Shown: positions 5,040-21,942, numbered from the stretch's first letter. The stretch: DNA of 22,837 bases from Candidatus Binatia bacterium (GCA_038245295.1 JBBRSP010000048.1:1-22837); one strand, 5' to 3'. Notes: generated from the sequence alone by a model not told the origin. A program made the numbers and translations.

Positions 5040-5067
5040 ACCCAACTCCTTCACTGGACAATCGACC

Positions 5068-5100
5068 AGTCGTTGCTGTCCCTGCAGTCGTTGCAGTCCC
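5068..5100. repeat. Third array of the same 9-mer repeat
   Basis: agtc-gttgctgtc-cctgcagtc-gttgcagtc-cc, same orientation as 4609-4638. Confidence 0.8.
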
Positions 5101-5119
5101 GGCGGAGTCGCGGTGCCGC

Positions 5120-6036: not shown

Positions 6037-9000
6037 TCAAGGCGCCGACACCTCGAAGGTGCGGCGCCGGCGGCCATAGAGCACCGCACTGCTGATCAGC
6101 AGCGCAAAGGCAATCATCACCTGAGCGCTGGCCAGGCTGCTGGCGCGTTCGGCCTTCTCCCCCATGCTCACGAGAGCCAGGATGCGCGACATCTCGTTGC
6201 CATCGAGGTCGTAGGTGCTCAAGTCGAGATCTTCGGACAGCTCGCCCGCCTGCCGCAGAAACACGTTCGGCGCCGCCCCCGGCTGCGGATTCACCTCGGG
6301 CGGGAAGTTGCGCGGCCGTGCTGTGTACGGCGTCAGATCGGATTCCGTGGTGAAGTAGTCACGCATGTCGGTGGCGTAGCGATCGTACTGACTCATCGGC
6401 GCCGCACCCATGAGCAGCAGCATGGTCTTGTTGATGCTCATGCTCGAGTGATGGCGGTGCGATACGTATCCGCGTTTTGCATACGGACTGATCACCAGAT
6501 CCAACGTGCGGTGCGCCGAGACGTGATCGACGCCACCCTGCGGATCGTCCTCGGTGACGAAGATCGCCATCTTGGGCCAGAACGGACTGTGTGTCAGCCC
6601 GTCGACCACCATACCCAGACCGGCGTCGTTGTCGGCAATGGCACTGCGCGGCGTCGGTTCGCCGGGGGTCGCTCCGAAGGTGTGATTGTTCGGCAGCCAG
6701 ATAAACAAGAACTTCGGTAGGACACCGCGTGCCGTGTACGCGTCGAGCTCGCCCTTGAAAAGCTCGGCACGCTCGGTATCGAGGCGATTCGGAATGATGT
6801 TGGCCGGGTAGTCGAGCATCTGGTTCGGCCACACCGTATTCTTGAGAATGTCGATGTTGACCCCTTTGGCGCGCAAGCTTTCGATGTCGCCGTTGACGAT
6901 CTGGAAGATCTCGTCCGCCGTCGGCAGTCGCCCTGGGAACGCCTGGGTGAGCGGCAGCGCGATGCTGCCAACACCACCTTGATTGATGCCTGTGGAAAAA
7001 CGCGACAACAACCCGAGTGTTTCACCGTACACGCGGAAGGAGATGTCCTGACGCTCGAGGGCGTCGAACAGATAACCACCCTTGGCGAAACCCTCCTGAC
7101 CTTGCTCGGTGATGCCGCTCGGAAGATTGCGGTCGTAGTTGCCAGGCCACAGCTTCTCCGTCCAATCCGTACAGTTCGATTGATCCTGCCACTGATGCCC
7201 GAGGATCGAGACTTCGCCGTCGTTGAAGAAGTTGTCGCCCATCGCAAACTCGCGCGCCAGCGCCTGGTGGTTGGGCGTCGGACCCGACGCCCACTCGGCC
7301 AACGACGGATCGCCGTTGCCCCCAGGGAACGTTCCGTAGATCTGGTCGTAGGTGCGGTTCTCCTTGAAGATGAAGACGACGTGCTCGATGGCCTCCGACG
7401 GCCCGGCCCCAAAATCCGCCGGCACCGGACCACCGCGTTGTAACTCCCCGTCGGCCGCAACACCGTCGACCCAACGCTGTGTCTGCGGCGCAAACCCGCA
7501 GTTGACAACCACCTGCGCCTGCCCGGCCTGAAGATCATATTGGTCGACGTTGTCGATCACCGACAGACTCCCCTTCAGGAGCTGGCCGATATAGGAGTCG
7601 TTGTACGTGCCGTTGAAACCCGGCCCACCATTCGGCCCCGCCGCCGCGGCCTTGGTGTTGCCGACATACAGCCGCTTGCCGTCGTTTGTCAGCGCCAGCG
7701 ACGTCGGATACCAGCCGGTCGGAATGAAGCCCGCCGTCGTAAAGGTTCGCGCCGTCGCATCCACGTTGATGACCTGCACGGCACTGATGCCAGCGTCAGC
7801 CACGTAGAGACGTTTGCCATCCGGCGACACAGCCAGGGCGTTCGGATAGAGGCCCTGCAATTGGCCATCGACCGGGCCTGGTTCAAAGATGTTGAGAGGC
7901 ACCTCGGCGATGCGAGTCAGCGTTGCGGCGTCGAGCACGATGAGCAAGTCGACGTTGGTCGCCGTGATGTACAAGAAAGCGCCGTCGGGACTGAGCGCCA
8001 TGGCGCTCGGATGACTGCCGCCGTGTTCGGTGCGGTGGTTGACGCGCACCGAACGGGCGATCGGCACATGCCGCAAGACCACCGGCGCGTCGGGATTGGT
8101 GAGATCGATCTCGACCAGCGCCGAGCGCTCGGTCTTGTTGGCGTCGGACGGCGGCAACGGTGCTGGGACGAAATCCGGCGGATTCGCATTGTTGATGCCC
8201 CATGACGTCACGAAGGCCCGCTTTCCGTCTTTCGCCAGCAGCACTGAGTACGGATAGTTGCCGGCTTGTTTGTCGGCTTGGTGGACGGTCTTCGTCGCCA
8301 GGTCGATCGATAGAAACGAATTGGTGCGCATCCCGAGGGCAAACAGATGCGAGCCATCCTGGCTCAACGCCAGACCGCTCGGGAACGTATTGTCGGGCAA
8401 CGTCAGGAACGGAGTTTCGGCTTTGCTCAACCGGCCGTCGTGCAGAGTGAGCTTGTCGATCCGATCCGGCGTACCGTTCTGATCGCTGCCGACGAAAATA
8501 CTCTCGCCGCCGGGTGTCATCGCCAAACCATAGAACTGTTGCACATCGATCTTCGACACCGCCAACGTGTGTGTGTCGAACGCTTGCAGGAAGAGCTCGT
8601 CGTGATCGTCGCTGTAGCCGTCGTTGGTGACGACGAGCGTGTTGCCGTCGGCGGTCAGCGCCATGTTGAGAGGCATCGTCTCGGTCGCCACCTGCGTGCC
8701 GGCCGGCGTGACGCGACGCCCGCTCGGCAGGATACCGAGCCCGCCGGACATCGGACCGGCAGGCGCAACTTGCTCCGGCGCCTGGAACGTGGCGATCTCC
8801 GCCGGACATCCATCAAGCCCGCGCTGCACTCCCTGCAGCACCTCGTCGACGGTCACCGCCCCGTCGCGGCCGGTGTCAGCGGGAGGACACGTGCGATACG
8901 GCGTCGACTCGAGTGCCACGCCGACGGCGCGGATCAGCTCATTGACGAAGACCTGGCCGTCACCATTGCAGTCCGAAGCACACAACGCGGCATGACCGGC

Positions 9001-9066
9001 ATTGGGATGCACGGCAACACTGAACGCCATGACGAACGATACGATCGAGACCCTCAAAGTGCGCAT
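6037..9066 (-). CDS. Exported bifunctional YncE-like beta-propeller / phosphoesterase (alkaline phosphatase superfamily) with an N-terminal dockerin-like module and a C-terminal membrane anchor
   Basis: 1009 aa; signal peptide; CASDCNGDGQV..NELIRAV...CPPADTGRDGAVTVDE...GC module; propeller repeats (PxxxALSPDGxxLYV); phosphoesterase motifs HVVFIFKENRTYDQ, TPNHQALA, EVSILGHQW, EDDPQGGVDHVSAHR; C-terminal hydrophobic helix followed by RRRR. Confidence 0.88.
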   Translation of the reverse strand: MRTLRVSIVSFVMAFSVAVHPNAGHAALCASDCNGDGQVFVNELIRAVGVALESTPYRTCPPADTGRDGAVTVDEVLQGVQRGLDGCPAEIATFQAPEQVAPAGPMSGGLGILPSGRRVTPAGTQVATETMPLNMALTADGNTLVVTNDGYSDDHDELFLQAFDTHTLAVSKIDVQQFYGLAMTPGGESIFVGSDQNGTPDRIDKLTLHDGRLSKAETPFLTLPDNTFPSGLALSQDGSHLFALGMRTNSFLSIDLATKTVHQADKQAGNYPYSVLLAKDGKRAFVTSWGINNANPPDFVPAPLPPSDANKTERSALVEIDLTNPDAPVVLRHVPIARSVRVNHRTEHGGSHPSAMALSPDGAFLYITATNVDLLIVLDAATLTRIAEVPLNIFEPGPVDGQLQGLYPNALAVSPDGKRLYVADAGISAVQVINVDATARTFTTAGFIPTGWYPTSLALTNDGKRLYVGNTKAAAAGPNGGPGFNGTYNDSYIGQLLKGSLSVIDNVDQYDLQAGQAQVVVNCGFAPQTQRWVDGVAADGELQRGGPVPADFGAGPSEAIEHVVFIFKENRTYDQIYGTFPGGNGDPSLAEWASGPTPNHQALAREFAMGDNFFNDGEVSILGHQWQDQSNCTDWTEKLWPGNYDRNLPSGITEQGQEGFAKGGYLFDALERQDISFRVYGETLGLLSRFSTGINQGGVGSIALPLTQAFPGRLPTADEIFQIVNGDIESLRAKGVNIDILKNTVWPNQMLDYPANIIPNRLDTERAELFKGELDAYTARGVLPKFLFIWLPNNHTFGATPGEPTPRSAIADNDAGLGMVVDGLTHSPFWPKMAIFVTEDDPQGGVDHVSAHRTLDLVISPYAKRGYVSHRHHSSMSINKTMLLLMGAAPMSQYDRYATDMRDYFTTESDLTPYTARPRNFPPEVNPQPGAAPNVFLRQAGELSEDLDLSTYDLDGNEMSRILALVSMGEKAERASSLASAQVMIAFALLISSAVLYGRRRRTFEVSAP

Positions 9067-9203: not shown

Positions 9204-11234
9204 ATGGCGTGGCAAGAGAAGCGGCGACTCGCCCACCTGTTGCTCGTGGCCGCAATCCTCACGGTGTGCGCCCGGCGCGGCAGCGCCGAGGATCGTGCCG
9301 CGCCTATCGCGGAGGTCGTCGTCACGGCAACGCGGACAAGCGCCAGCGCCGACGACGCGGCGGCTTCGGTAACGGTCATCGATCGCGCCGAGATCGACCG
9401 ACGCGCCGGCAGCTCGACAACCGAGGCTCTGCGCGGCACCGCCGGCATAGACCTGACGGAGTTCGGCAGCCCCGGCCAGGCATCCCTCGCCACGGTACGC
9501 GGCGCCGCCTTTGACGAAGTCCTGGTGATGATCGATGGCGTCGAAGTGAACACACCGAGTGCCGGCCAGTTCGATCTAGCCAACCTGAGCAACGACAATG
9601 TCGAACGCATCGAAGTGGTGCGCGGCGCCGGCGGCTCCCTCTACGGCGCCCAGGCGATCGGTGGTGTCGTCAACCTGCTGTCGGCGCGCGGCAGCGGTCC
9701 TCTGAGTCTTTCCGTCTCCGGCGAAGCCGGCTCCGGCACAACACATCGCGAAACCATCGGCCTGCAGGGTGAACACGGCCGTTTCTCCATCGCCGGTAGT
9801 GTGACCAACTTCATGACCGACGGATTCCAACCGGTGAACGACGACCACCGCAACCTATCGACGGCGTGGCGTGGTGACGTCGACGTCATCGATGGCGGCA
9901 CCTTTACCGGCGTTGTCCGCTACGCAACAACAAGGACCGGCCTGCCGAACTTTCAGATCGCCGAACAGCGCCTCGACGAAGATGCGCGGCGGCGCACGGA
10001 TTTCTTTCTCGCCAAAGGTGAATGGGCCCACGTCGTCGGCCCGCTCGATTATCGATTCACCGCCTCCTACGTCAGCAGCAACGAACGGACACGCGACGAC
10101 GAGGCCGACCCGGAAGAACCCGGCGAAACGGAAATACGGGTCCTGGCCCATATTCCGAGCGAGATCGTCGCCGGCGAAGCGCAAGCCAACTATTCGTTTG
10201 GCGACGTGGCGCTGACGACGGTCGGCGCCGAGGTCAAGGAGCGCTCGGCGCACATCTACAAGCAACAGCGGGATACCGAAGTCGACGAAGACGGCGAGGT
10301 AAGCGAGGAGGTCGAGATCGAAGATTTCCGCGCCAATCGCACCAGCTTCGGGCTGTATGCGCAACAGCAGCTGCACCTTCTCGAGCGCGTCCTCAACGCT
10401 GTCGCGGCGGTGCGTTACGACCGTTACGACGTCTTCGGCGATGAAGTGACCGTATCGGGCTCGGCCAGCTATCGCTTCGCGCCGACCGGGACACAGATCC
10501 GCGCCGGTTACGGCGAGGGGTTTCGCGTCCCGTCGTTCGACGAGCTCTTCGAGCTCGGCCTCGGCAATCCGAACCTGAAGCCCGAGCACAGCTGGGAGGT
10601 CCACGCCGGCCCGGTACAAGAGGCCTGGGACGGTCGCCTACGGCTCGAAGCGACGTTCTTCCATCGCGAGGTCACCGATTTCATCGCCGAGGTTGCCGAT
10701 CAGTTGCCGTCGAGCATCGCCGGCGTGCCGGAGAGCGCGAGCAATCCACTGACACGCAACCTCGACGCCACGTTCGACGGCGTCGACACCACCCTGGCGC
10801 TGCATCCGCTGCCATGGCTGCATGCCGAGGCGAACTACATGTACCTTGAAACGTCGACCGGTGGCTCCGGCGTCGTCAACAACGAAGCGGATAACTTCAA
10901 GGCCCTGCTGTATCGCCCGCATCATCGCGGCGCGGTCACGGTTACCGCGATCCACGATCATCTCCTCAGCGACGGCGATCGTGCCAGCGTCGCTCTGCGC
11001 GTCAGCTCCGTGGGTCGACGGTTGACGGCCGATCCGCAAAACGACTTCGAGGGTCGATCGACGCCCGGCTACGCCCGTGTCGATCTCTACCTGAACTATC
11101 GTCTCGGCGGCAGCTGGTCGCCGGTGTCGATCAACGCCTCGGTGCGCAACCTCTTCGATCGCAACTACGAAGAGTCCATCGGGTTCCCGGCACCGCCGCT
11201 GCGCGTGTTGGCCGGACTGCGCTACGACCTGTAA
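9204..11234 (+). CDS. TonB-dependent outer-membrane receptor (BtuB-like family; substrate unknown)
   Basis: Signal peptide, TonB box EVVVTATR, plug motifs 'VTVIDRAEI', 'VLVMIDGV', 'VERIEVVRGAGGSLYG..AIGGVVNL', GNPNLKPE, RNLFDRNY, terminal beta-strand AGLRYDL. Confidence 0.93.
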   Translation: MAWQEKRRLAHLLLVAAILTVCARRGSAEDRAAPIAEVVVTATRTSASADDAAASVTVIDRAEIDRRAGSSTTEALRGTAGIDLTEFGSPGQASLATVRGAAFDEVLVMIDGVEVNTPSAGQFDLANLSNDNVERIEVVRGAGGSLYGAQAIGGVVNLLSARGSGPLSLSVSGEAGSGTTHRETIGLQGEHGRFSIAGSVTNFMTDGFQPVNDDHRNLSTAWRGDVDVIDGGTFTGVVRYATTRTGLPNFQIAEQRLDEDARRRTDFFLAKGEWAHVVGPLDYRFTASYVSSNERTRDDEADPEEPGETEIRVLAHIPSEIVAGEAQANYSFGDVALTTVGAEVKERSAHIYKQQRDTEVDEDGEVSEEVEIEDFRANRTSFGLYAQQQLHLLERVLNAVAAVRYDRYDVFGDEVTVSGSASYRFAPTGTQIRAGYGEGFRVPSFDELFELGLGNPNLKPEHSWEVHAGPVQEAWDGRLRLEATFFHREVTDFIAEVADQLPSSIAGVPESASNPLTRNLDATFDGVDTTLALHPLPWLHAEANYMYLETSTGGSGVVNNEADNFKALLYRPHHRGAVTVTAIHDHLLSDGDRASVALRVSSVGRRLTADPQNDFEGRSTPGYARVDLYLNYRLGGSWSPVSINASVRNLFDRNYEESIGFPAPPLRVLAGLRYDL

Positions 11235-11266: not shown

Positions 11267-11285
11267 CGCAGGCTTCAGCCTGCGG
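11267..11285. repeat. Partial REP copy CGCAGGCTTCAGCCTGCGG overlapping the symporter stop codon
   Basis: Identical to the core of the repeat at 20608-20633; contains the TGA (tca at 11275-11277) that ends the symporter gene. Confidence 0.75.
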
Positions 11286-12987
11286 TCGCTGAACTCCAGG
11301 TGCGAACCCCGTCGCCCCAGAATCGCTGCAACGCCAGAGACACGAGGACGACCACCGCGCAGCCGACGACATTGAACCACAGGAAGCCGAGATCCGATGC
11401 AAAGAACAGGATGATCACAAAAGCCTGGGCGATCAGTCCGGCGATGAAGACCGGCGTCGCCGTGACATGACGCAGAAAGAACGCGACGACGAAGAGCCCA
11501 AGGACAGTGCCGTAGAAGATCGAGCCAAGGATGTTCACCGCCTGGATCAAGTTGTCGAGGCGCGATGCAAAGAGGGCGAAGGCAATTGCCGCCACGCCCC
11601 ACAGAACCGTAAACAGCTTCGAGACGAACAGATCATGCTGCGGCGAATCATCGCTCTGGCGGATGCGTTTGTAGAGATCGACCACGGTCGTCGCTCCGAG
11701 CGCCGTCAATTCGCTGGCCGTCGAGCTCATCGCCGCACACAGGATCACCGCAATGAGCAATCCAACCAGACCATGCGGCACATAGGTCAGGACGAAGGTG
11801 AGGAAGACGTGATCGGTATCTTTGGCTTCCACACCCGTAACCGCTTTTCCCACCAGGTCGCGGGCTTCGCCGCGCAGGCCCTCGATGCGCGACGCCGCGG
11901 CACGCAAGTCGGCGCGCGCCGCGGCTTGGCGCTCGGCAGGTGCATCGATTGTCGAAACGTAGGCCGTCGCCGCCTCGCGCTGCGTTGCAAACGCCGCATC
12001 GTAGCGTCCCTGTAGATCGAGCAACGCGCCGGCGTGCGCGCTGCCGCGCACCCGCTCCAACAGCGACGTGTTGAAGAAAATCGGCGGCTGTGTGAACAGG
12101 TAGAACACGAACAACATCACGCCGGTGAACAGGATGACGAACTGCATCGGCACCTTGAGCATGCCGTTGAACAGCAAACCGAGGCGGCTCTCCGTAACCG
12201 AACGACCCGACAGATAACGCTGCACCTGCGACTGGTCGGTGCCGAAGTAGGATAGCGCCAGGAAGAAGCCGCCGGTGATGCCCGACCAGAACGTGTAGCG
12301 ACTGTTGGGATCAAGCTCGAAGCTGACGACGTTCATGCGATCGAGCGCCCCAGCCAGCTTGATGGCGGCGCGCAGCGACACACCTTCCGGCAAGCGCCAG
12401 ACGATCAGGCCGGCGGCAATCACCACGCCGGAGAGCATGACCACCATCTGTTGCTTCTGTGTCTGGCTCACCGCCTGCGTTCCGCCCGATACGGTGTAGG
12501 CGATGACGAACACACCAATCACGATGTTGGTGACATTGAGCGACCAACCAAAGAGCGAGCTCAGAATGATCGCCGGCGCGTAGATCGTAATTCCCGTCGC
12601 CAGTCCGCGCTGAATCAAAAAGAGGATCGCCCCGAGGTAGCGTACTCGGACATCGAAGCGATATTCGAGGTATTCGTAGGCCGTGTAGACCTTGAGTCGG
12701 TAGTAGATCGGCACGAAGACGGCGCTGATCACCACCATGGCCAACGGTAATCCGAAGTAGAACTGCACGAAGCGCATGCCGTCGGCATAGGCTTGCCCCG
12801 GCGTCGACAGGAACGTGATGGCGCTGGCCTGCGTCGCCATGATGCTCAAGCCAATCGTCGGCCAACGCAGTGTGTCGCCGCCGCGCAGATAGCCTTCCAT
12901 GTCGCGCACACCGCGCGTCTTCCACACGCCGTAGATGGCGATGAAGGCGAGTGTGCCGACCAGCACAAACCAATCGATGGGGCTCAC
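11275..12987 (-). CDS. Sodium:solute symporter (SSS/SLC5 family)
   Basis: Multiple TM helices; SSS motifs 'SIMATQASAITFLSTPG', 'TAYEYLEYRFD', 'YFGTDQSQVQRYL', 'AAMSST'. The likely start is GTG at 12987 (MSPIDW...), overlapping the upstream small ORF stop (GTGA), rather than the track start at 13068. Confidence 0.93.
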   Translation of the reverse strand: MSPIDWFVLVGTLAFIAIYGVWKTRGVRDMEGYLRGGDTLRWPTIGLSIMATQASAITFLSTPGQAYADGMRFVQFYFGLPLAMVVISAVFVPIYYRLKVYTAYEYLEYRFDVRVRYLGAILFLIQRGLATGITIYAPAIILSSLFGWSLNVTNIVIGVFVIAYTVSGGTQAVSQTQKQQMVVMLSGVVIAAGLIVWRLPEGVSLRAAIKLAGALDRMNVVSFELDPNSRYTFWSGITGGFFLALSYFGTDQSQVQRYLSGRSVTESRLGLLFNGMLKVPMQFVILFTGVMLFVFYLFTQPPIFFNTSLLERVRGSAHAGALLDLQGRYDAAFATQREAATAYVSTIDAPAERQAAARADLRAAASRIEGLRGEARDLVGKAVTGVEAKDTDHVFLTFVLTYVPHGLVGLLIAVILCAAMSSTASELTALGATTVVDLYKRIRQSDDSPQHDLFVSKLFTVLWGVAAIAFALFASRLDNLIQAVNILGSIFYGTVLGLFVVAFFLRHVTATPVFIAGLIAQAFVIILFFASDLGFLWFNVVGCAVVVLVSLALQRFWGDGVRTWSSATAG

Positions 12988-13130
12988 GCCGCCCACCGCG
13001 TCAATGCGTAGAACAGGAGGATCAGGACGCCGAGCTCCGCCATCACGACCCAATAGATGTTGCGCCACGAGCCGAGCAGCGGCGGTGGCAGCTCCGGTGC
13101 GGGGGACTTTTCGACGGCGCGCTTCGCCAT
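12984..13130 (-). CDS. 48-aa single-TM membrane protein, probable symporter accessory subunit (not in ORF track)
   Basis: Translated by hand: MAKRAVEKSPAPELPPPLLGSWRNIYWVVMAELGVLILLFYALTRWAA*; starts 4 nt after the PIG-L stop and overlaps the symporter start by 4 nt. Confidence 0.8.
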   Translation of the reverse strand: MAKRAVEKSPAPELPPPLLGSWRNIYWVVMAELGVLILLFYALTRWAA

Positions 13131-13134
13131 GCGC

Positions 13135-15618
13135 TCAATCCGCTGCGAGCAGGTTCAAGAACAAGCGATAGGCGCCCGGGACGCCCGCCGGCAGTTGGCG
13201 GAAGAACGCCAGGCCCGTGTAGACGTACCGCCCCTTACCGTGATGCGCCACGAGCAAGCCGCCGAGCAGCGGGTCCTCACCTGGATCGTGGGCGCGGAAG
13301 ATTGGCTGGTAGTGGTCATCCCATTTTTGCGCATAGTACAGGCCGCGCTCCTGGGCCCATCCGTCGAAGTCGGCGGCGGTAATCTGGTTCGGCTGCCGCA
13401 GCAGCGGCTGCTGCGGATCGACCGGCTCCATCACCGCGGTTTCGTCGGTCACCCGATCGCGGCCGATCTCCAAGGGGTACGGGCCGATCGGTGTGTCGAG
13501 CGGATCGAGGCGGTTCGAGGTGTTGTATTGCACCACGACGACGCCGCCGTTCTCGACATACTGCATGAGTCGCGCGTGCGTGCTGCGCAGCAGCGGGCGT
13601 GTATTGTAGGCGCGGATACCAACAACAATCGCGGCAAAGCGGCTGAGATCGCCGCTGCGAATCGTGTCGTCGTCGAGGACCTCAACCGCGACCCCAATAT
13701 GCGTCAGGTCTTCGGCGATGGTGTCGCCGGATCCGGGAATGTAGCCGACCCGCCCCTTCGGCAACTTCACGTCGAGAGGGACCAGTCGCAACGCGACGCG
13801 CTGCAAGACCGTCTGTTGCGGGATGTGGGGATAGTCGATGACATCCTCCCGATACGACCAACTCGCACCGGCAACTTCAACAGCCGGATGGATCGATACG
13901 GCGGCCCCGTCTTTCGGCGGCGTCACTTCAAAACGCAGCGTCGTCTCCTCACCGGCGTGGGCCAGGCTCACCGGTACGACGGCCGGCTGAGCCTGCCAAC
14001 CGGCGGGAAGGCCAAGCACCGCATCGCCGTGAAGGTCATCGCGACCCGCGCGCACGCGCAGGGTGATTGCGGTGGGCTCGTAATTTGCGAACATGATCGC
14101 CTGGCGCGTCGGCGTGATCGTCGCTGGCGGCACGACCTGAAAGTCGCGCAGGCGCTCGCCCTGCACGCGGTCGGTCCACGCATACTGGACTGGCGCGTCG
14201 AGCATGATGGTTCGTCCCGAAAACTCCAATTCGATCCTCGCCATGAGTGCCGCCGGCGCCTTCGGTTGGCCGATCAACGTTGGGTCTGCCACAAGCTGTC
14301 GCCCGGGCAGCGACGGATCCGCTAGCCAGTATGGCGTCGACACGGCCGCATCGGCAGCGATCGATATCTTGGCCGCCACTTCCTTCTTCTCCTCGAGTGT
14401 CAGCGCCGTATCGACAGGCACTTCGCTGGCTCCAGGAAAGACGACGCGGCGCAGGCGCAGCGCCGCCGGGCGGCGCTGCGTGACTTCGATTTTCACCGAC
14501 ACCTCGCTGCCCGGAACGGCACTAGGTTGCGCAGCCGTGGCGCGCACAAAGACTCCGGCGGCCGCAGCGATGATCTCATCGAGCGCCGTGCGCGCGGCCA
14601 ACACACGCACCACCGGCGGCAAAGCATCAAGCGCCTTGTGCGCCTGGATCAGCGCCGGCAGGGCGCGCTCCGGACGATCGCGTTCCAGGGCGGCTTGGGC
14701 CGCTTTCAGGGCCGCCGCCAACGGCTTGGCGCGCGATCCAAAACGACTCCATCCGACGTCAATACCTTCAAGAATGTCCTTGGTCGGCTTGCTGCCAGCG
14801 ACCGAGAGGAAACGCTCGATCAGCGGGCCGCGCTCACCGGCGACACCGAAGCCCTGGCTCTTGTGCTGACTGCGCGACAACGCCGCGAGCTCGCCGTAGC
14901 CGAGTCCAAGGCGCACGTCGTAGTCCCCGACATCCAGCGCCGACGCTCCGATTGGCGCTGGGTGGTCGGTCCACGTCGGCACGTTGAGCAACAAGCGTTC
15001 GGCCTGCCACGGCTCGAGGCCGGCGTCGATCTGGTCGGGGAAACGTTTTGGATCGGCCGCCGCCGAGTAGGCCTCACGCGCCAAGATGGCCGAGGCGGTG
15101 TGGTGCCCATGGTTCGGCGGCAATTCATTGAAGCGTGTGATGATCACATCGGGTTGAAAAGTTCGGATGACACGCACAACGTCGGCCAGCGCTTCGTCGT
15201 GGTCCCAGATCTCCAGGGTCTCGCTGGCGCTTTTCGAAAAGCCGAAATCTCGCATGCGCGTGAAGCGTTGCTGCGCACTGTCGATGCGACGTGCCGCCAA
15301 AAGCTCTTCGGTGCGGATTACATCGAGCAGTTCCGCCTGCTCTGTGCCCAACAGATTCTGCCCACCACCACCACGCGTCATCGAAAGGTATGCGGCGCTT
15401 ACGTGTCGGTTGTTGGCGAGGTAGCCGAGTAGACGGGTGTTCTCGTCGTCGGGGTGCGCGGCGATGTAGAGCACGCGGCCGGTGTTGGCGAGGCGATCGA
15501 GGGCGTGGGCAAGCTTTCCGGCATGCATCGGCGGCTCCTGGGCAACGGCGGGCGAGGCAGAGAAGAAACTGGCGACAAGGAATAGTAGCAAGGTGAGACT
15601 GAGTCGTGGAATTCTCAT
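13135..15618 (-). CDS. Exported PIG-L/LmbE-family Zn-dependent deacetylase/amidase with Ig-like (NEW3-like) domains and a C-terminal class I glutamine-amidotransferase-like domain
   Basis: 827 aa; signal peptide MRIPRLSLTLLLFLVASFFSASPAVA; AHPDDE, TRGGGGQN, RTEELLAARRID, DFGFSK and HGHH motifs; C-terminal 'GYIPGSGD...AIVVGIRAYN...YVENGGVVVVQY'. Confidence 0.92.
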   Translation of the reverse strand: MRIPRLSLTLLLFLVASFFSASPAVAQEPPMHAGKLAHALDRLANTGRVLYIAAHPDDENTRLLGYLANNRHVSAAYLSMTRGGGGQNLLGTEQAELLDVIRTEELLAARRIDSAQQRFTRMRDFGFSKSASETLEIWDHDEALADVVRVIRTFQPDVIITRFNELPPNHGHHTASAILAREAYSAAADPKRFPDQIDAGLEPWQAERLLLNVPTWTDHPAPIGASALDVGDYDVRLGLGYGELAALSRSQHKSQGFGVAGERGPLIERFLSVAGSKPTKDILEGIDVGWSRFGSRAKPLAAALKAAQAALERDRPERALPALIQAHKALDALPPVVRVLAARTALDEIIAAAAGVFVRATAAQPSAVPGSEVSVKIEVTQRRPAALRLRRVVFPGASEVPVDTALTLEEKKEVAAKISIAADAAVSTPYWLADPSLPGRQLVADPTLIGQPKAPAALMARIELEFSGRTIMLDAPVQYAWTDRVQGERLRDFQVVPPATITPTRQAIMFANYEPTAITLRVRAGRDDLHGDAVLGLPAGWQAQPAVVPVSLAHAGEETTLRFEVTPPKDGAAVSIHPAVEVAGASWSYREDVIDYPHIPQQTVLQRVALRLVPLDVKLPKGRVGYIPGSGDTIAEDLTHIGVAVEVLDDDTIRSGDLSRFAAIVVGIRAYNTRPLLRSTHARLMQYVENGGVVVVQYNTSNRLDPLDTPIGPYPLEIGRDRVTDETAVMEPVDPQQPLLRQPNQITAADFDGWAQERGLYYAQKWDDHYQPIFRAHDPGEDPLLGGLLVAHHGKGRYVYTGLAFFRQLPAGVPGAYRLFLNLLAAD

Positions 15619-15620
15619 CG

Positions 15621-16835
15621 CTATCTCCTGTTCCGATGAGACATAGGTCCCAAAGGACCTATAGGACCCATAGGCTGCATCTTTAAAATCTGCTGAAAAT
15701 AACTCTCATAGTGGTCGATCGCCGGTTCGCGTTGAAAATGGGCAAGCGCCTGCTGGCGCGCCGCGCGTCCGTAGACCATGCGGCGCTGCGGATCGCGCAC
15801 GACATCGAGCACGGCTGCCGCCAGTGCCTGGACATCAAAGGCCTGCACCAGAACGCCGGCGCCGTTTGTCACCAACTCGGCCAGCCCACCGACGCGGTAG
15901 GCAACCACCGGCACGCCGCAGCTCAGCGCCTCCAGGGCGGCAACGCCAAAGCTTTCACTTTCGCTGGTCAACAGGAACGCGTCGGCGTGCTGCAGGTGCT
16001 CGACGAAATCCGGCAGGCTGCCGAGGAAGCGGACACTGCCATCAACGCCCAACTCGCGGGCCCGCTGCTCCGTCCGGATACGCTGCGGGCCGTCGCCGAT
16101 CAGCACCAGACGAGCCGCCACCTGGCGACGCAGGCGAGCCAGCGTCTCGATGAGATCCACGGTGCGCTTGACCGGGCGGAAGTTGGACACATGGAAGAGG
16201 ATTGGTCCGCCCTCTTCGGTTGTCACGCCGAACAACTTGGCGAGCTTTGAGCGCCGCACCAACTCTGCCGGCGCGAAGTGGTCGGTATCGACGAAGTTGG
16301 GAATCACCTCGATCGGCAGGTCACCTGCCAGGCCGAGTCGTTCATGTGCCTCATTCTTCAGGAACTGCGACGGCACGGTCACGCCATCCGAGGCGGCGAC
16401 GGTGAAGGACGTCACGGCGCGATAACGCGGATCGGCGCCGAGACGCGTTACGTCGGTACCATGGAGTGTCGTGACGATACGTGGTGCTGCGGTTCCAAGA
16501 ACTTGCCGCGCCAGGTACGCACTCGCGGAGTGTGGCACCGCATAGTGGACGTGCACCAGATCGACATGTTGTGTTGTGGCGAGCTCGACGATCTTGGACG
16601 CCACCGCCAGGTCATACGGCGGGTGGTCGAGGATCGGGTAGTCACCGGCGGCGACCTCGTGAAAGGACAGGCCGGCGGCGGCGCTGGCCATGCGACTCGG
16701 CGGTGCCGTGGCGATGACGTGCACCTGATGCCCGCGGCGCGCCAGCCCGGCTGCCAGCTCCACGGCGATGACACCACTGCCACCGAGCGTCGGATAGCAA
16801 ACCGTAGCGATTGTTAGGCGCGCCTCAGGACCCAT
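15621..16835 (-). CDS. bshA: N-acetyl-alpha-D-glucosaminyl L-malate synthase (GT4), bacillithiol biosynthesis
   Basis: CYPTLGGSGVIAVELA, HVHYAVPH, TTLHGTDVT, HVSNFRPVKR and ESFGVAALEA motifs typical of BshA; likely ATG at 16835, overlapping the bshC stop. Confidence 0.93.
   Translation of the reverse strand: MGPEARLTIATVCYPTLGGSGVIAVELAAGLARRGHQVHVIATAPPSRMASAAAGLSFHEVAAGDYPILDHPPYDLAVASKIVELATTQHVDLVHVHYAVPHSASAYLARQVLGTAAPRIVTTLHGTDVTRLGADPRYRAVTSFTVAASDGVTVPSQFLKNEAHERLGLAGDLPIEVIPNFVDTDHFAPAELVRRSKLAKLFGVTTEEGGPILFHVSNFRPVKRTVDLIETLARLRRQVAARLVLIGDGPQRIRTEQRARELGVDGSVRFLGSLPDFVEHLQHADAFLLTSESESFGVAALEALSCGVPVVAYRVGGLAELVTNGAGVLVQAFDVQALAAAVLDVVRDPQRRMVYGRAARQQALAHFQREPAIDHYESYFQQILKMQPMGPIGPLGPMSHRNRR
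15642..15674. repeat. 9-mer tandem repeat (YATAGGACC-like) inside the bshA 3' end
   Basis: cataggtcc-caaaggacc-tataggacc-catagg; encodes PMGPIGPLGPM. Confidence 0.75.
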
Positions 16836-18429
16836 CTTCGCCCCAATGTAGATCGCGCGGCATGGCATCGAACGGGACGATCGCCTTGAGCACTTGTTCG
16901 ATGAATGGACGTTCGCCGTAGCGGGCGGCAAAATATGCCAGGCCGTACACCCGCTCCTGCGGCGTGCCATGCGGGTACAGGACCTCCTTGGCGCGACGCA
17001 CGTCGGCGACGCGGCTGACATTCTGATGCAGCCGCGCCTTCTCGAATTTGTCGATAAGCTTCGTCACGGCGTGCTCAACGCTGTGGTTGGTCTTCTCGAT
17101 GGCGCCGCGCAGTCCGGGTCCAGTGTCGGCAATCTGTTCCCCAACTTTTCGCAGCGCTCCTTCGAACGGCTCGAGCAACATGCGAATCAAACTCTTTCCA
17201 TCGAGCGCCGAAGTGGTCCCTGCGTCGGCCTGCGCCAACAGCTCATCTTCCGGCCGCGCCGCGTCATCGGGACTCAGATGCAGGCGCTGTAACAATCGTG
17301 TCGTCTTCGCTTCGATGACACGCAATCGGGCGCGCGGTACAACCAAGGGCATCGGCAGATGGTGAGCCTCATAGAGCGGCCCCAGCTGCGCAAAGTAGGC
17401 GATCTCGCCCGGCCCACCAACGTAGGCGGCCGTCGGCAACAGGGTGTCCTGCAGGATCGGCCGCAGCAGCGCGCTCGTACTGAAGCGCAGCGGCTCCGCC
17501 TCGAGCAATGCCAGCAACTCGGGCAGAGTGTGCGAGCCATGGCCGCCGACCTCCACGAAGCCATCGGGCGTCGGGTCGAGTCGATAACGCGCGCCGGCGG
17601 GACCTTGTGGATGGAAGAACGATAGTGGTGCCGCGTGACGTATGTGAACCGGCGCGGCGAAACCGGCCTGCGCTAGATCATCGACACGCCGCTCTAACGC
17701 CTCGGCGATCGGCAGCGCTTGCTCCAGGGAACGCCGGTGCATAGGCATCGTCGCCGGCCCGACGCCGGCATCACGCGGATCGAAGAGGACGAGACCTTCT
17801 TCGGCGAACAATTCACCGAGTAGGCCGGCGAAGGCCGCACTCCAGCCAGCTGCCGGGACATAGTGACGAGCCAAGCGTGCCAGGTGCGGCGTGCTATTCG
17901 GCAGATGAGCCAGCTCACGACGCAATTGATCGAGACAACCCGCCACCTCGTCGGGCAGCCGGCAACTGGCGATCGAGATGCGCTGATCGGGAGACGCTGG
18001 CAGATTGATCTCCAGAGGCGGACCTGCGGCGCAGGGGACATTGCTGTTGGCGATTTCGACAAGGTCGTGGTCTTCGGTCTGCAACCAGAAGATCGGCACC
18101 ACGGGCTTGCCGGTTTCGACCGCCAGGGCGCGCGCCGCACTTACGGCCGAAGCCGCTTTGTAGATCGTGTACAACGGACCAAGAAACAGACCAACTTGCT
18201 GCCCGGTGACAACGGCGGCGGCGCCGCGCCGTAAGTGAGCCAGGTGATCGGTGCGCGCGCGACTCGGCGCCAGGCGCGCATTCTGAGCCTCGAGTGTGTC
18301 CGCAACCGCACTCGCGACCGGGCGCACGGCACGATCTACGGCGCGCCGACGATCGGCCGGCGACGTAAAATGCCCATTGAAAAAGGCACTCGCGTCGCCG
18401 GACAGGTAGGCGTCGAAGAGACTCCGCAT
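16825..18429 (-). CDS. bshC: Bacillithiol biosynthesis cysteine-adding enzyme
   Basis: VVTGQQVGLFLGPLYTIYKA, VVPIFWLQTEDHD, FSTSALLRPILQDTLLPTAAYVGGPGEIAYFAQL, coiled-coil insert, PQERV; adjacent to bshA. Start is ATG 18429 or TTG 18435. Confidence 0.93.
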   Translation of the reverse strand: MRSLFDAYLSGDASAFFNGHFTSPADRRRAVDRAVRPVASAVADTLEAQNARLAPSRARTDHLAHLRRGAAAVVTGQQVGLFLGPLYTIYKAASAVSAARALAVETGKPVVPIFWLQTEDHDLVEIANSNVPCAAGPPLEINLPASPDQRISIASCRLPDEVAGCLDQLRRELAHLPNSTPHLARLARHYVPAAGWSAAFAGLLGELFAEEGLVLFDPRDAGVGPATMPMHRRSLEQALPIAEALERRVDDLAQAGFAAPVHIRHAAPLSFFHPQGPAGARYRLDPTPDGFVEVGGHGSHTLPELLALLEAEPLRFSTSALLRPILQDTLLPTAAYVGGPGEIAYFAQLGPLYEAHHLPMPLVVPRARLRVIEAKTTRLLQRLHLSPDDAARPEDELLAQADAGTTSALDGKSLIRMLLEPFEGALRKVGEQIADTGPGLRGAIEKTNHSVEHAVTKLIDKFEKARLHQNVSRVADVRRAKEVLYPHGTPQERVYGLAYFAARYGERPFIEQVLKAIVPFDAMPRDLHWGEDGS

Positions 18430-18439
18430 CAGCAAGCCA

Positions 18440-18527
18440 GGCTAGGGAAGAGGCTGGGGCTTGGGCTTAGGTACTGGATGGCCTTCTATTTCAACCCTGA
18501 GCCTGAGCCCAAGCCTCTGCCTAAGCC
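18440..18527. repeat. Inverted pair of hexamer (GGCTNR-like) tandem arrays forming a 32-bp imperfect stem
   Basis: 18440-18471 versus the reverse complement of 18496-18527: 25/32 identical by hand alignment, 24-nt loop. Confidence 0.75.
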
Positions 18528-18539
18528 GGCGATCGCCGG

Positions 18540-19409
18540 TTATTTTTTCCAGCCGGCGATCGCCTTGGCGATGTCTTTCGAGAAGAAGCCTTCGTAGACC
18601 TGATCGCCCTTGCCGACATCCTGCGCCTTCTCGGCCGCTTCGATGGCACCGGCTGTTTGTCCCTGCTTGGCGAGAATTTGCGCCCGAACCCAGTTGTTCC
18701 ACCAGGTCGGCTTGATGGCGATCGACGTGTCGATATACGCGAGCGCCTGCGTCAGGTCGCCGCCGTTGTCGAGCAGCCAGCGTGCCGAATTGAAATGCGG
18801 ACGCCAGGCGTCGTCGAGGGCCTTGTCGATGTTGCCGAGGACCTGCGTGCGTGTCGCCACCTCGATCGGCACCGAGAGGCGCAGCTTCTCCCATTCGAGA
18901 TCGAGGCGCGTCGAATCTTCGGTCGTGTTGGAGAACAGGAATGCCAGGCGCTCGCGCAGTGGGATGCTCTCCGGCTTGACGGTGACACGCGCCACATCCT
19001 TGCTCTCGTCGTAGCCGATGGTGCTGGAACCGGTGAGCACGGTATTAAGGATGACCGTCCAGCTCGACTTCCCCGGAATGCTGAACACGGCGTACGTACC
19101 GGCCGGCACAGGCTTACCGCCGAACGTAAAGTCACGGCTGCTGGTCAGCTTCGTCGCGGCATTGGCGCCGCTGCGCCACAACGTATCGTACGGCAACAAC
19201 TCGCCCCAGATCTTGCGCCCCTTCACGCCCGGGCTCGAATAGTCGACCGAAATATCCGTCAGGCCGACACGCTGTTCGACACGTGCATGCGGGCTTGGTT
19301 GCGGCAGATCGGGCACACTCTGCGCCAAGCCAGACGTCCTTGCGAGGGCCAACACCAAAGCCGTCGCCGAAACCAGCCGTACGGCCTTGAACCAATAGGG
19401 TCGTTGCAT
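18540..19409 (-). CDS. Exported DUF2911 domain protein with C-terminal TPR-like helices
   Basis: 'PQPSPHARVEQRVGLTDISVDYSSPGVKGRKIWGELLPY..LWRSGANAATK...PAGTYAVFSIP...LEWE' DUF2911 pattern; signal peptide; GGAGG spacing favours ATG 19409 over 19418. Confidence 0.88.
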   Translation of the reverse strand: MQRPYWFKAVRLVSATALVLALARTSGLAQSVPDLPQPSPHARVEQRVGLTDISVDYSSPGVKGRKIWGELLPYDTLWRSGANAATKLTSSRDFTFGGKPVPAGTYAVFSIPGKSSWTVILNTVLTGSSTIGYDESKDVARVTVKPESIPLRERLAFLFSNTTEDSTRLDLEWEKLRLSVPIEVATRTQVLGNIDKALDDAWRPHFNSARWLLDNGGDLTQALAYIDTSIAIKPTWWNNWVRAQILAKQGQTAGAIEAAEKAQDVGKGDQVYEGFFSKDIAKAIAGWKK

Positions 19410-19481: not shown

Positions 19482-19568
19482 AAAAGGGGACAGGCCCCCT
19501 TTATTTGAGTCGAGACTTCCCACGATTCACAGCGAAAGGCTCCCGAAAAAAGGGGGCAGGACCCTTTA
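19482..19568. repeat. Two direct copies of an AAAAGGGG(A/G)CAGG..CCCTTT palindromic REP-like unit
   Basis: AAAAGGGGACAGGCCCCCTTT (19482-19502) and AAAAAAGGGGGCAGGACCCTTT (19546-19567); each folds into a short hairpin; the second overlaps the AKR stop codon. Confidence 0.7.
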
Positions 19569-20504
19569 CGTGGTCGCCGACCACAGGGCTGGGGGAATCT
19601 CGGTGGCAAACAGAGCGGCGTTGTCGCGGATCTCTTCGGGTGATCTGGCGCCGCTCAGGACACACGTCACCGCCGGGTGCTGCAGCGGGAACTGCAAGGC
19701 CGCGGCTCGGAGCGGGACAGCAAATCGGGCGCAGATCTGTTCCAACTGCTGCGCCCGCTCGATCAGCGCGGCATCCGCGGGCATGTAGTCGTAGGTCGCG
19801 CCGGGGCGCGGATTGGCCAGCAGGCCAGAGTTGAAGACGCCGGCGGCGATCACGGCGACACCGTGATGCTGGGCTGCCGGCAAGAGGTCGGCCAACGCCG
19901 ATTGATCGAGTAGCGAGTAACGGCCGGCCACCAGAACACAGTCGACGAGGCCGCGTTCGACGAACCGCGTCAGCATCGCTGATTGGTTCATACCAGCGCC
20001 AATAGCGCCGATGACCTTCTCGTCGCGCAGACGTCGCAGGGCCCGAAACGCCCCGTCGATGGCTTCGGCTTCGTGATCGTCAGGGTCGTGTGCATGCAAC
20101 ACGTCGAGGCGATCGACCCCGAGGCGCTGCAAGCTTGCTTCGAATGATCGCAGCGCGCCGTCATACGAGAAGTCGAATACCGGCCGAACGCGCGGCACAT
20201 CGGCGAAGATCGTGTCGGGATCGATACCCGGCTCCAGCAGTCGGCCGACCTTTGACGCAAGTATGTATGAATCCCGCGGCCGCCGGCGCAACGCGCCTCC
20301 CAGGCGCTGCTCCGACAATCCGTGTCCGTACAAGGGCGCGGTGTCGAACCAGCGGATGCCGACATCCCAGGCGGCGTCGACCGTGGCGATCGCCTGTGCG
20401 TCGCTGAAGCCTTCGTAGAGATTGCCTAGTGGAGCGCAGCCGAGGCCGAGGCGCGTGACCTGGAGGCCGGTGCGTCCGAGGGCGACCAACTCGTTGGGCT
20501 TCAT
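19566..20504 (-). CDS. Aldo/keto reductase, D-threo-aldose 1-dehydrogenase / L-fucose dehydrogenase-like
   Basis: LGLGCAPLGNLY, FDTAPLYGHGLSE, SKVGRLL, FDFSYDG, HDPD, IGAGMN, LVAGRYSLL; likely start MKPNELV at 20504; sits next to fucD. Confidence 0.88.
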   Translation of the reverse strand: MKPNELVALGRTGLQVTRLGLGCAPLGNLYEGFSDAQAIATVDAAWDVGIRWFDTAPLYGHGLSEQRLGGALRRRPRDSYILASKVGRLLEPGIDPDTIFADVPRVRPVFDFSYDGALRSFEASLQRLGVDRLDVLHAHDPDDHEAEAIDGAFRALRRLRDEKVIGAIGAGMNQSAMLTRFVERGLVDCVLVAGRYSLLDQSALADLLPAAQHHGVAVIAAGVFNSGLLANPRPGATYDYMPADAALIERAQQLEQICARFAVPLRAAALQFPLQHPAVTCVLSGARSPEEIRDNAALFATEIPPALWSATT

Positions 20505-20552
20505 CTCAGCTGACCCGCACTCGGCCTTGCTGAAGCATTCGCATAGGAACAC

Positions 20553-20633
20553 GCCGCAGGCTGAAGCCTGCGCCTACCAGTTTCCGTTCCGCCGGTGGAT
20601 CCAAGGCGGTAGGCGCAGGCTTCAGCCTGCGGC
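20553..20633. repeat. Inverted pair of GTAG-type REP sequences (26-bp perfect inverted repeat)
   Basis: GCCGCAGGCTGAAGCCTGCGCCTACC (20553-20578) and GGTAGGCGCAGGCTTCAGCCTGCGGC (20608-20633); each unit has an internal palindrome and a GTAG foot. Confidence 0.85.
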
Positions 20634-20649
20634 CCCGGGGTTTCCCTGA

Positions 20650-21942
20650 TCATGGACGACGCCATTCGGCGCCATCGGGATACGAAAGCGCGGCCAACGA
20701 CTCGCGGTGCATCTCGATCGAATAGCCTGGCGCATCGGGCACGCGGTAGCGACCGTCGCGTACCTCGACGGGATGAACGAAGTGCTCATGGAGGTGGCCG
20801 GCGTATTCGGTGCTGCGATCGTCGAGCGACGCGCTCACCACGAGGTAGTCGATCAATGAGATATGCTGAACATACTCACAGAGGCCGAGCCCTCCGGCAT
20901 GCGGGCAAACGGGAATGCCGAAGCGCGCCGCCAGCAGTAATACCGCAAGCACTTCGTTGAGTCCGCCGAGACGACACGCATCCACCTGGCAGTAGTCGAT
21001 CGCCTTGGCCTGCAGCAGTTGCTTGAACAAAACTTTGTTGGCGCAATGCTCGCCGGTAGCGACACCGATCGGCGCGACGGCGCGACGGATGGCGGCGTGA
21101 CCGAGAACGTCGTCCGGACTCGTCGGCTCTTCAATCCAGCGCAGCCGGAAAGGCTCCAGATGTTTGATCCACTCGATTGCCTGCGGGACATCCCACACCT
21201 GGTTGGCGTCGGCCATGAGGTCGCGCTCCCAGCCGAGCTCTTCACGCATCACCTGACAGCGGCGCACGTCGGACGTGATGTCGACGCCGACCTTGGTCTT
21301 GAAACGCGTCCACCCTGCCGCCATCGACTCACCACACAGGCGTCGCACTTTGTCTTCCGGATACCCAAGCCACCCGGCCGAGGTAATGTAGGCCGGATAG
21401 CCGTCGCGACGCATCTCAGCCTCGCGAGTCGCCTTGCTCGCTTCGTGTTTGCGCAACATGTCGAGCGCCTCGTCCGGCGTCAGCGCATCGGTCAGGTAGC
21501 GCCAATCGATCAGCGACACGAACTGCCGCGGCGTCAGATCGCTCACCAGCTTCCATACCGGCTTGCCGACGCTCTTGGCCCACAGGTCCCATACGGCGTT
21601 GATGATGGCCGCGGTGGCCAGGTGAATGACGCCCTTGTCGGGCCCAAGCCAGCGCAGCTGCGACTCATTGGTGAAGCGGCGGTGGAAAGCCGCGAAGTCG
21701 GCCGTAATCTCGTCGAGGTCGCGGTCGATGATCAGAAACTCCAACGCGCGCACGGCGGAGCAGACAACTTCGGTGCCGCGGCCGATGGTGAAGGTCATGC
21801 CGTGCCCGGTAATGCCGGCGTCGCTGTCGAGAATCACGTACGCTGCAGAGTAGTCAGGATCGGCATGCACAGCATCCGATCCGTCGAGGAAACGCGACGT
21901 CGGACAACGCACATCGAGCACGTTGAGTTTACGGATGCGCAT
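20650..21942 (-). CDS. fucD: L-fuconate dehydratase (enolase superfamily, rTS-beta/ENOSF1-like)
   Basis: DVRCPTSRFLDGSDAVHADPDYSAAYV, FTIGRG, QLRWLGPDKGVIHLATAA, YPAYITSAGWLGY, KxKVG, DANQVW, WIEEPTSPDD, ATGEH, VCPHAGG. Confidence 0.92.
   Translation of the reverse strand: MRIRKLNVLDVRCPTSRFLDGSDAVHADPDYSAAYVILDSDAGITGHGMTFTIGRGTEVVCSAVRALEFLIIDRDLDEITADFAAFHRRFTNESQLRWLGPDKGVIHLATAAIINAVWDLWAKSVGKPVWKLVSDLTPRQFVSLIDWRYLTDALTPDEALDMLRKHEASKATREAEMRRDGYPAYITSAGWLGYPEDKVRRLCGESMAAGWTRFKTKVGVDITSDVRRCQVMREELGWERDLMADANQVWDVPQAIEWIKHLEPFRLRWIEEPTSPDDVLGHAAIRRAVAPIGVATGEHCANKVLFKQLLQAKAIDYCQVDACRLGGLNEVLAVLLLAARFGIPVCPHAGGLGLCEYVQHISLIDYLVVSASLDDRSTEYAGHLHEHFVHPVEVRDGRYRVPDAPGYSIEMHRESLAALSYPDGAEWRRP

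Follow-up and report, generated by a model that had tools for sequence, protein, structure and literature searches.

A bacillithiol (BSH) operon without a bshB gene raises the question of which enzyme deacetylates N-acetylglucosamine-malate (GlcNAc-malate), and we address it here for a locus on a 22,837-nucleotide stretch of DNA (the window) from Candidatus Binatia bacterium (GCA_038245295.1, JBBRSP010000048.1:1-22837). In this locus bshC and bshA are followed by genes for a large PIG-L/LmbE protein with a signal peptide, a 48-residue membrane peptide and a Na+/solute symporter (SSS). Some enzyme must carry out the deacetylation because in the established pathway BshC requires a free amine (PMC5790435). 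On balance we favor the reading that the large protein serves an envelope salvage of glucosamine-malate (GlcN-malate) and also stands in for BshB, in the window's clade as a cytoplasmic isoform. The features of the locus are as follows.

18540..19409, minus strand: DUF2911 (PF11138) plus TPR protein, 289 residues, with a signal peptide (PF11138, 165.8 bits)
18428..18545, minus strand: long intergenic hairpin extending up to the bshC start codon (folding energy against shuffles)
16825..18429, minus strand: bshC, cysteine-adding enzyme, 534 residues (TIGR03998, 413.7 bits against a cut-off of 265.8)
15621..16835, minus strand: bshA, GlcNAc-malate synthase, 404 residues (TIGR03999, 421.4 bits against a cut-off of 273.7)
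13135..15618, minus strand: large PIG-L/LmbE metallo-amidohydrolase, 827 residues (PF02585 at residues 50–183, 60.4 bits against a cut-off of 28.2)
15541..15618, minus strand: predicted Sec signal peptide of the large PIG-L protein, residues 1–26 (sequence features)
15526..15539, minus strand: candidate internal start consisting of AGGAG, a 6-nt spacer and an in-frame ATG (Met31) (conservation and ribosome-binding motif)
12984..13130, minus strand: 48-residue single-pass membrane peptide (open reading frame conserved upstream of SSS genes)
11275..12987, minus strand: Na+/solute symporter (SSS), 570 residues (TIGR00813, 233.6 bits against a cut-off of 184)

A preliminary description of this DNA had reported a tightly coupled five-gene run from bshC to the symporter gene, and its coordinates and junctions were all confirmed on the minus strand: an 11-nt overlap of bshC and bshA, a 2-nt gap between bshA and the PIG-L gene, a 4-nt gap between the PIG-L and 48-residue genes, and a 4-nt overlap of the latter with the SSS gene. 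The membership of these five genes stands; what had been overlooked is the DUF2911 gene upstream of bshC, a sixth gene that comes first in the run both here and in relatives and is part of the same unit. The report that no short bshB lies in the window was also borne out, and a TIGR04001 (BshB1) search of the whole genome (G000, 96.6% complete) gave no match over the cut-off. The periplasmic salvage that the same description proposed is also what we infer, in a broader form. The large PIG-L protein, the small peptide, the symporter and the DUF2911 protein would together form a four-gene unit that salvages the glucosamine-malate core of BSH in the envelope. Its exported Zn-type amidohydrolase would strip an N-acyl group, either acetyl in the case of GlcNAc-malate or, in BSH forms, a cysteinyl group that may be S-conjugated or oxidized; the symporter would import the GlcN-malate, and BshC would re-add cysteine inside. 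Where the module is joined to bshC and bshA in one cassette, the same enzyme would do the BshB step, and this sharing could have permitted repeated losses of bshB1. An internal Shine-Dalgarno (SD) sequence and ATG in the window's clade would give a cytoplasmic isoform suited to that step, which in other bshB1-less lineages would proceed via the periplasm or through an unexported fraction of the enzyme.

To what extent the module belongs with bacillithiol can be seen from genome samples, each searched with the window's PIG-L protein and with the BshC model. The 201 genomes of the window's class included 16 with both (15 without the unpublished G758, and with two of the BshC matches cut by contig ends), one with PIG-L only (a relative of 33–45% identity), none with BshC only and 184 with neither. 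A Myxococcota sample of 151 genomes gave much the same tally (16 both, one PIG-L only at 34% identity, none BshC only, 134 neither), and among 81 genomes of the window's own phylum two had both and one, G078, had PIG-L only, so that the tie to bacillithiol claimed at the outset extends beyond this lineage in all three samples. In Bacteroidota (151 genomes, 143 of them BshC-positive) 39 close orthologs and 17 distant relatives were found, all in BshC-positive genomes and none in the eight negatives; the module is intact there (PIG-L, peptide, SSS, often DUF2911), with SSS after PIG-L at 21 of the 24 loci read. The PIG-L and bsh genes are neighbors in 13 of the 15 Myxococcota carriers besides G004, mostly in a second, divergent order that also occurs at metagenome loci, and co-directional and divergent orders both keep the PIG-L gene by bshC/bshA. 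In G078 a distant, signal-less PIG-L gene is followed by a true bshA and a true bshB1 in one run (L049:729-5222), and bshC was not found in this 98% complete genome. Judging from its genes, G078 may make GlcN-malate without BSH, and the run is a separate tie of the PIG-L family to GlcNAc-malate genes. From these distributions the module is very probably linked to bacillithiol.

The place and fate of bshB1 bear more directly on the missing step. Among 25 related loci drawn from genome contigs, 14 have bshC and bshA directly upstream of the large PIG-L gene, in the window's order, and these span Binatia, Polyangiales, Myxococcaceae, Kofleriaceae, Acidobacteria and others. In five of the 14, bshC and bshA are separated by a short gene, with the large PIG-L gene present alongside, and the four intact short genes scanned were true BshB1 (249–257 bits on TIGR04001). 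The initial proposal that the PIG-L and SSS genes occupy the place of BshB was therefore rejected, because the bshB1 slot lies between bshC and bshA, beside the large PIG-L gene; Bacteroidota, which carry the module far from the bsh genes and keep BshB1, also count against that wording. The other nine loci have no bshB1 in the operon, and no BshB1 scored over the cut-off anywhere in those nine genomes (the L018 genome was the positive control); as the large PIG-L gene is kept in all nine, it is the constant element and bshB1 the dispensable one. BshB1 over the cut-off was likewise found in none of the 15 BshC- and PIG-L-positive genomes of the window's class (G758 being outside this test) and in 9 of 16 Myxococcota carriers (absent from 7). 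The Bacteroidota control, with BshB1 in 142 of 143 genomes, rules out that its absence is an assembly artifact. At bshB1-less loci bshA was open over its full match (21 of the 21 checked), as was bshC at those checked, and the bshB1-less rows were scattered over several parts of the tree (FastTree, 68 of 91 rows). Moreover, the large protein was the only PF02585 match in five genomes with bshA and bshC (G456, G480, G497, G537 and G552). Since bshB1 is lost and this protein is the sole PIG-L in those five genomes, it is the obvious deacetylase candidate, and we consider it likely that it stands in for BshB.

The large protein has an unusual domain composition for this role: a signal peptide, a PIG-L domain (residues ~44–289), a helical bundle, Ig-like/NEW3-type beta domains (a PF10633 NEW3-type match was found on relatives) and a class I GATase-like C-terminal domain (~620–827), in a predicted structure with a pLDDT of 93.6. 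It scored well below the NCBIfam cut-offs for BshB1 (TIGR04001, 24.9 against 182.5 bits), BshB2/Bca (TIGR04000, 27.8 against 195.25 bits) and Mca (TIGR03446, 48.6 against 277.15 bits, its best NCBIfam score), and was also far under that for MshB; by these profile scores the enzyme is an LmbE/PIG-L member and not a BshB1, BshB2 or Mca. In a fold search the best match of the PIG-L domain was MshB (4EWL; Z 22.0, rmsd 3.0, 229 aligned), and LnmX was also among the best first-domain matches, together with chitobiose deacetylases (Z ~19) and the BshB-type structures 6P2T, 6ULL and 2IXD (Z 18.1–18.2); STM3548 was a further match of the large protein (Z 16.6, rmsd 2.9, 188 aligned). Because the best matches mix MshB, LnmX, chitobiose deacetylases and BshB, the fold leaves the substrate undecided. 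Residues H55, D57, D58, R102, D124, H170 and H173 were invariant in 96 aligned rows; aligned to MshB, they include the His-x-x-Asp and distal His metal ligands and the adjacent Asp base (H55, D57, D58 and H173), and the invariant R102, D124, H170 and H173 correspond to R68, D95, H144 and H147 of MshB, which are named as substrate or metal contacts (PMC4101496). Also invariant are K129, R162, R669, R722 and R807. The motifs of both end domains are kept in relatives at ~30% identity.

Could a protein with a signal peptide also act inside the cell? Inspection of its N-terminus showed two basic residues, a hydrophobic segment (KD12 2.66) and a likely A-V-A|Q cleavage site, in agreement with the signal peptide described earlier, and 98 of the 120 nearest database proteins carry a signal-like extension. 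Five codons past the predicted cleavage site lies Met31, a start at which would yield a 797-residue protein lacking the signal. Of 118 alignable nearest proteins, 114 have Met at this position, and 92 of 98 have Glu at −3; the DNA at the site reads GGAG, six bases, ATG, the ATG being kept in 25 of 28 close loci (a count that includes the near-identical L019, L024 and L025 and excludes the frameshifted L032). Anti-SD pairing of −5 kcal/mol or stronger was found at 25/25 conserved ATG sites and at 22/185 other internal ATGs of the same genes, and, given the residues, GGAG-forming codons were used in 23 of 24 cases (13.6 expected). In the window both starts have AGGAG, with SD energies of −7.4 kcal/mol (first) and −6.6 kcal/mol (Met31). 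In 18 of 19 proteins in which the crude cleavage site moves, Glu(−3) remains three codons before the Met, and 20 of the 120 database proteins are annotated as starting at this ATG. The internal SD and ATG are a feature of one clade. Bacteroidota orthologs have the signal peptide and no Met at this position. Within that clade we regard actual use of the conserved site as a start as fairly likely, whereas that the resulting isoform is a working BshB has slightly less than an even chance. Export and action as a cytoplasmic BshB had been set up as alternatives, whereas the conserved internal start suggests that both are possible in the clade. As an explanation of every bshB1 loss the internal start failed in an independent clade (0/6) and in G746 and G767. 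Met codons inside signal-peptide h-regions, inspected by eye as alternative starts, did not separate distant bshB1-less from bshB1-bearing genomes.

What the symporter carries can be approached through its relatives. The protein has 11 strong hydrophobic segments in a crude scan, its nearest solved proteins are NIS, SMCT1, SiaT and SMVT, with the neutral-sugar SGLTs behind, and its family profile scored best on SiaT 5NV9 (218 bits). Residues S60 and T63 of SiaT, which bind the substrate carboxylate (PMC5931594), map to the invariant S55 and T58 of the symporter family. An anionic sugar such as GlcN-malate fits these features, and the odds lean modestly toward GlcN-malate as the cargo. Among 53 metagenome loci whose sequence extends far enough downstream, 45 have an SSS gene after the PIG-L gene. 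A like peptide is encoded upstream of SSS in 74 of 96 loci, an alignment of 71 rows showed no variation at W22 and Y26, and the 48-residue open reading frame is a real gene. The peptide had no Pfam or NCBIfam match at E ≤ 0.001, so that no curated small-subunit model matched it, including those of the known small SSS partner subunits (DUF485/DUF4212 type); it is likely to be a small partner of the symporter. Elsewhere in the family, the genes of distant, presumably exported PIG-L relatives at L077–L079, L080 and L081 have an ABC transporter of the SBP_bac_6/8 type or an amino-acid permease downstream in place of SSS, and those at L028 and L029 (two Bryobacterales genomes) have a gene for the methionine sulfoxide reductase MsrA directly downstream.

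Since sequence does not fix the symporter cargo, a module that is linked to BSH for the sake of its cysteine side or of the intact thiol was also weighed; here S-conjugates would be cleaved in the periplasm, cysteine species or BSH/BSSB would be taken up, and an unrelated deacetylase would do the BshB step. The best NCBIfam score of the enzyme being to the Mca amidase (48.6 bits, against 24.9 for BshB1, all far below cut-off) and the presence of other short PIG-L proteins in some genomes are in keeping with this. It is nevertheless improbable, given the five genomes without any other PIG-L protein, the near confinement of bshB1 loss to cassette lineages, and a symporter that lies nearest to sugar-acid and monocarboxylate carriers.

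Signal-less members of the PIG-L family occur in operons of a different type. In the phylum of G005, two of 200 other genomes (G336 and G400; L188 and L189) have distant, signal-less PIG-L relatives that adjoin a ROK gene, sugar ABC permease genes and a gene like argininosuccinate lyase (ASL); both genomes are without BshC, and the lyase in them is a second paralog. Among plasmids 22 records were found and eight were read (L202–L209; seven from Alphaproteobacteria, one from Bacillus), all eight with an ABC importer, an argH-like lyase and a ROK or PfkB kinase, and with further genes for NagB (once), cysteine dioxygenase (once) and a DMT/EamA transporter (in three). Thus the importer, lyase and kinase genes are present in 10 of 10 signal-less loci (eight plasmid, two genome). 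ASL-family enzymes free fumarate from succinyl-substituted substrates. The deacylase, lyase, kinase and NagB could accordingly be read as a set for conversion of an N-acyl-GlcN-malate to the acyl group, fumarate and GlcN-6-phosphate, in which cleavage of the glycosidic C–O bond by an ASL-family lyase is a putative step, and the 'argH' label on the lyase paralog is probably wrong; AA2016_RS28570 of Aminobacter aminovorans is one example of this paralog. These operons suggest an N-acyl-glucosamine-malate substrate for the PIG-L family, and in organisms that do not make BSH the signal-less operon is a candidate for the breakdown of bacillithiol or GlcNAc-malate. The BSH-making module carriers G044, G230 and G572 have only a single distant ASL copy, which is consistent with recycling and not with breakdown. 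Both ASL-family genes in the window's genome were rejected as the operon lyase (29–35% identity; judging from the neighboring sequences, one precedes dap genes and the other lies in a different cluster). An ASL-family gene of that genome (G000:C14:42054-44322) adjoins a gene that by its sequence is presumably ComA-like, in a polysaccharide-type cluster.

Taken with the co-occurrence data, the lyase operons also bear on whether the substrate of the enzyme and symporter is some N-acetyl sugar unconnected with BSH, such as chito-oligomers, cell-wall fragments or a sugar acid, the two genes merely traveling with the bsh genes. Chitobiose deacetylases are near in fold (Z ~19), carbohydrate enzymes often carry Ig-like/NEW3 and GATase-like domains, and the Bacteroidota module stands apart from the bsh genes. 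Yet we judge this very unlikely: the PIG-L gene stays by bshC/bshA in two gene orders, co-occurrence with BshC is near-exclusive, G078 provides a separate bshA-bshB1 link, a fumarate-type lyase partner would be senseless for plain N-acetyl sugars, and the bshB1-less genomes would be left unexplained. The substrate is probably a BSH form or GlcNAc-malate.

Several observations nevertheless weigh against envelope salvage by an enzyme that doubles as BshB. The SD and ATG are absent from the site in eight bshB1-less genomes (G456, G480, G497, G537, G552, G567, G746 and G767; six Myxococcota and two relatives from the window's class) and present in four bshB1-bearing loci (L018, L019, L024 and L025), and for these reasons the internal start does not follow bshB1 loss. 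A Met without an SD sequence occupies the site in 3 of 18 distant loci (18 of 25 were scored by a motif script and the other seven inspected separately), and therefore the Met alone may be a protein constraint. In Bacteroidota bshA/bshC lie within ~6 kb at 0 of 24 loci read, and only 39 of 143 BshC-positive genomes have a close ortholog, BSH synthesis there being plainly independent of the module. The BSH-adjacent PIG-L copies form a single clade on the tree, kin that are not independent, and co-occurrence therefore partly reflects one traveling cassette. The TM3 residue R135 of SiaT, which makes a salt bridge to the carboxylate, is not in register with the symporter family, whose invariant R127 lies three residues earlier. 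Identity between the lyase-linked relatives and the large PIG-L protein is only ~30%, and the substrate of these relatives is itself deduced from context. Other PIG-L proteins could also do the BshB step, namely a 232-residue protein of the window's genome (G000:C24:73054-73752; 97.8 bits on TIGR04001, cut-off 182.5) and short proteins of G044 and G695 (134–138 bits). Finally, YpdA and BrxA/B were not found in the window's genome, and glutathione synthetase (GshB) is encoded in all five bshB1-less genomes tested (G000, G044, G625, G456 and G480).

The 232-residue protein was rejected as a general BshB substitute, since most bshB1-less genomes have no such match, but it may do the step in G000, where its gene lies inside a run of 2-oxoacid dehydrogenase type (from reading the neighboring sequences). 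The same genome encodes a 369-residue PIG-L protein with a signal-like N-terminus (G000:C4:122873-123982).

The pattern of starts allows the same chemistry to be placed strictly outside the cytoplasm, with GlcNAc-malate exported, deacetylated and re-imported, or BSH scavenged, and with the internal SD and ATG being a pausing signal or a by-product of the signal peptide. The eight bshB1-less genomes without the internal start, the Bacteroidota orthologs with a signal peptide and no Met, and the retention of the symporter by the enzyme gene all speak for it. It is an unlikely reading, against which stand the strength of the SD, its constant distance from the ATG and the synonymous codons chosen there, the Glu(−3) that stays with the Met in 18/19 proteins with a moved cleavage site, the 20/120 database proteins called from this ATG, and a cassette without an exporter gene. 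The thiol context is of a different kind: because GshB is present and YpdA and BrxA/B were not found in the window's genome, BSH is probably not the main thiol of these bshB1-less genomes. The same two observations would suit glutathione-making cells whose cassette yields an exported product of BshA and BshC that is not the usual cytoplasmic BSH and that the module tailors in the envelope. This we hold to be highly improbable, as BshA and BshC score above equivalog cut-offs, Na+ symporters normally import, and the cassette has no conserved tailoring enzyme. We therefore return to the salvage reading, in which one enzyme serves the recovery of GlcN-malate in the envelope and doubles as BshB, in the window's clade by way of a cytoplasmic isoform, and we give it a somewhat better than even prospect. 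More speculatively, and with a good deal less confidence, one giant LmbE family might underlie an inter-microbe traffic in bacillithiol, comprising salvage of GlcN-malate for BshC by exported enzymes with Na+ symporters, a cytoplasmic BshB made from a second start, and, in non-producers, catabolism to cysteine, fumarate and glucosamine by signal-less enzymes with an ABC importer and an ArgH-like GlcN-malate lyase.

Of the remaining features of the operon, the DUF2911 start at 19409 is preceded by a strong SD sequence (−9.5 kcal/mol), and the gene is present at 12 of 24 Bacteroidota ortholog loci as well as in bsh cassettes. Its protein is modeled as a beta-sandwich plus TPR; a search of solved structures gave no result for the protein as a whole, with fold matches for the TPR part only. 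The bshC start has no SD sequence (−1.5 kcal/mol), and the hairpin at 18428-18545 (minus strand) has a folding energy of −55.4 kcal/mol (z −3.4), equaled by 2 of 200 shuffles. A promoter and terminator scan of the window gave matches at chance level. Around the operon lie a gene for a BtuB-like TonB-dependent receptor (9204-11234, plus strand), convergent with the symporter gene and absent from related loci; a run of short-chain dehydrogenase/reductase (SDR), enolase-superfamily dehydratase and aldo-keto reductase (AKR) genes (19566-22706, minus strand) that resembles a sugar-acid catabolic set and is not conserved with the cassette; and a gene for a 1009-residue beta-propeller plus phosphoesterase protein (6037-9066, minus strand), a weakly similar sequence being found upstream of the cassette in L013. 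The receptor, the AKR/enolase/SDR run and the phosphoesterase were rejected as module members, there being no TonB, AKR, enolase or SDR match at the 25 loci. Farther off are glmS, encoding glucosamine-6-phosphate synthase (2732-4555, plus strand; 6.7 kb from the operon), a stand-alone HNH endonuclease gene (5120-5734, minus strand) and two long open reading frames without a Pfam or NCBIfam match (636 residues at 326-2236, minus strand; 241 residues at 4584-5309, plus strand).

A literature search that covered few subscription papers, and did not extend to supplements (of which those of PMC12719100 and PMC6282198 may bear on distribution), did not turn up the module or any catabolism of BSH. 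A 2018 review calls BSH import and export unclear and states that no process like the periplasmic handling of glutathione is established for BSH (PMC5790435). Surveys of the pathway require all three bsh genes (PMC6282198, PMC12719100). If correct, our reading would explain genomes with bshA and bshC and no bshB, which three-gene surveys score as pathway-negative; it would assign a function to a family of at least 7899 clustered members and provide a further, conserved example of an internal start that sends one enzyme to two compartments, and the lyase-linked relatives would indicate the first pathway by which a widespread thiol is catabolized. The hydrolase, the transporter and the substrates named here are all open to direct assay.

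Compared with known systems, the large PIG-L protein shares the LmbE fold, the metal site and the proposed reaction with BshB1 and BshB2/Bca, and dual deacetylase/amidase action is described for BshB paralogs (PMC5790435). It differs from them in its length (827 residues, where BshB1 is a single domain of ~230), in having at least four extra domains and a signal peptide, and in coexisting with a true BshB1 in many genomes. MshB is its best structural match, with equivalents of R68, D95, H144 and H147 invariant, whereas MshB Tyr142 has no equivalent in the alignment (an N-H-G-H-H motif in the large PIG-L protein) and, unlike MshB and Mca, the protein is predicted to be exported and has no mycothiol context. 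The symporter family shares the S60/T63 equivalents with SiaT (5NV9) and departs from it in the register of R135, in an invariant Gln in place of SiaT T58, in the small peptide upstream and in the absence of genes for sialic acid catabolism from the loci read. Glutathione is recycled by a periplasmic gamma-glutamyltranspeptidase, and the logic would be the same here, a thiol being cleaved outside the cytoplasm, its parts re-imported and the whole rebuilt inside, with the enzyme fold, the chemistry and the transporter all unrelated. Export of glutathione to the periplasm is cited in PMC5790435. The nearest counterpart to the second start is E. coli speA, in which initiation at a 5'-proximal in-frame internal start (SpeA-74/SpeA-70) leaves out the secretion signal, so that part of the enzyme is proposed to stay in the cytoplasm (bioRxiv 10.1101/520783). 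In the PIG-L gene, too, an in-frame ATG, here with a conserved SD, lies directly behind the signal sequence; the enzymes are unrelated, and in the PIG-L protein, where the start is predicted from conservation alone, the two forms would serve the salvage and the synthesis of one and the same metabolite.

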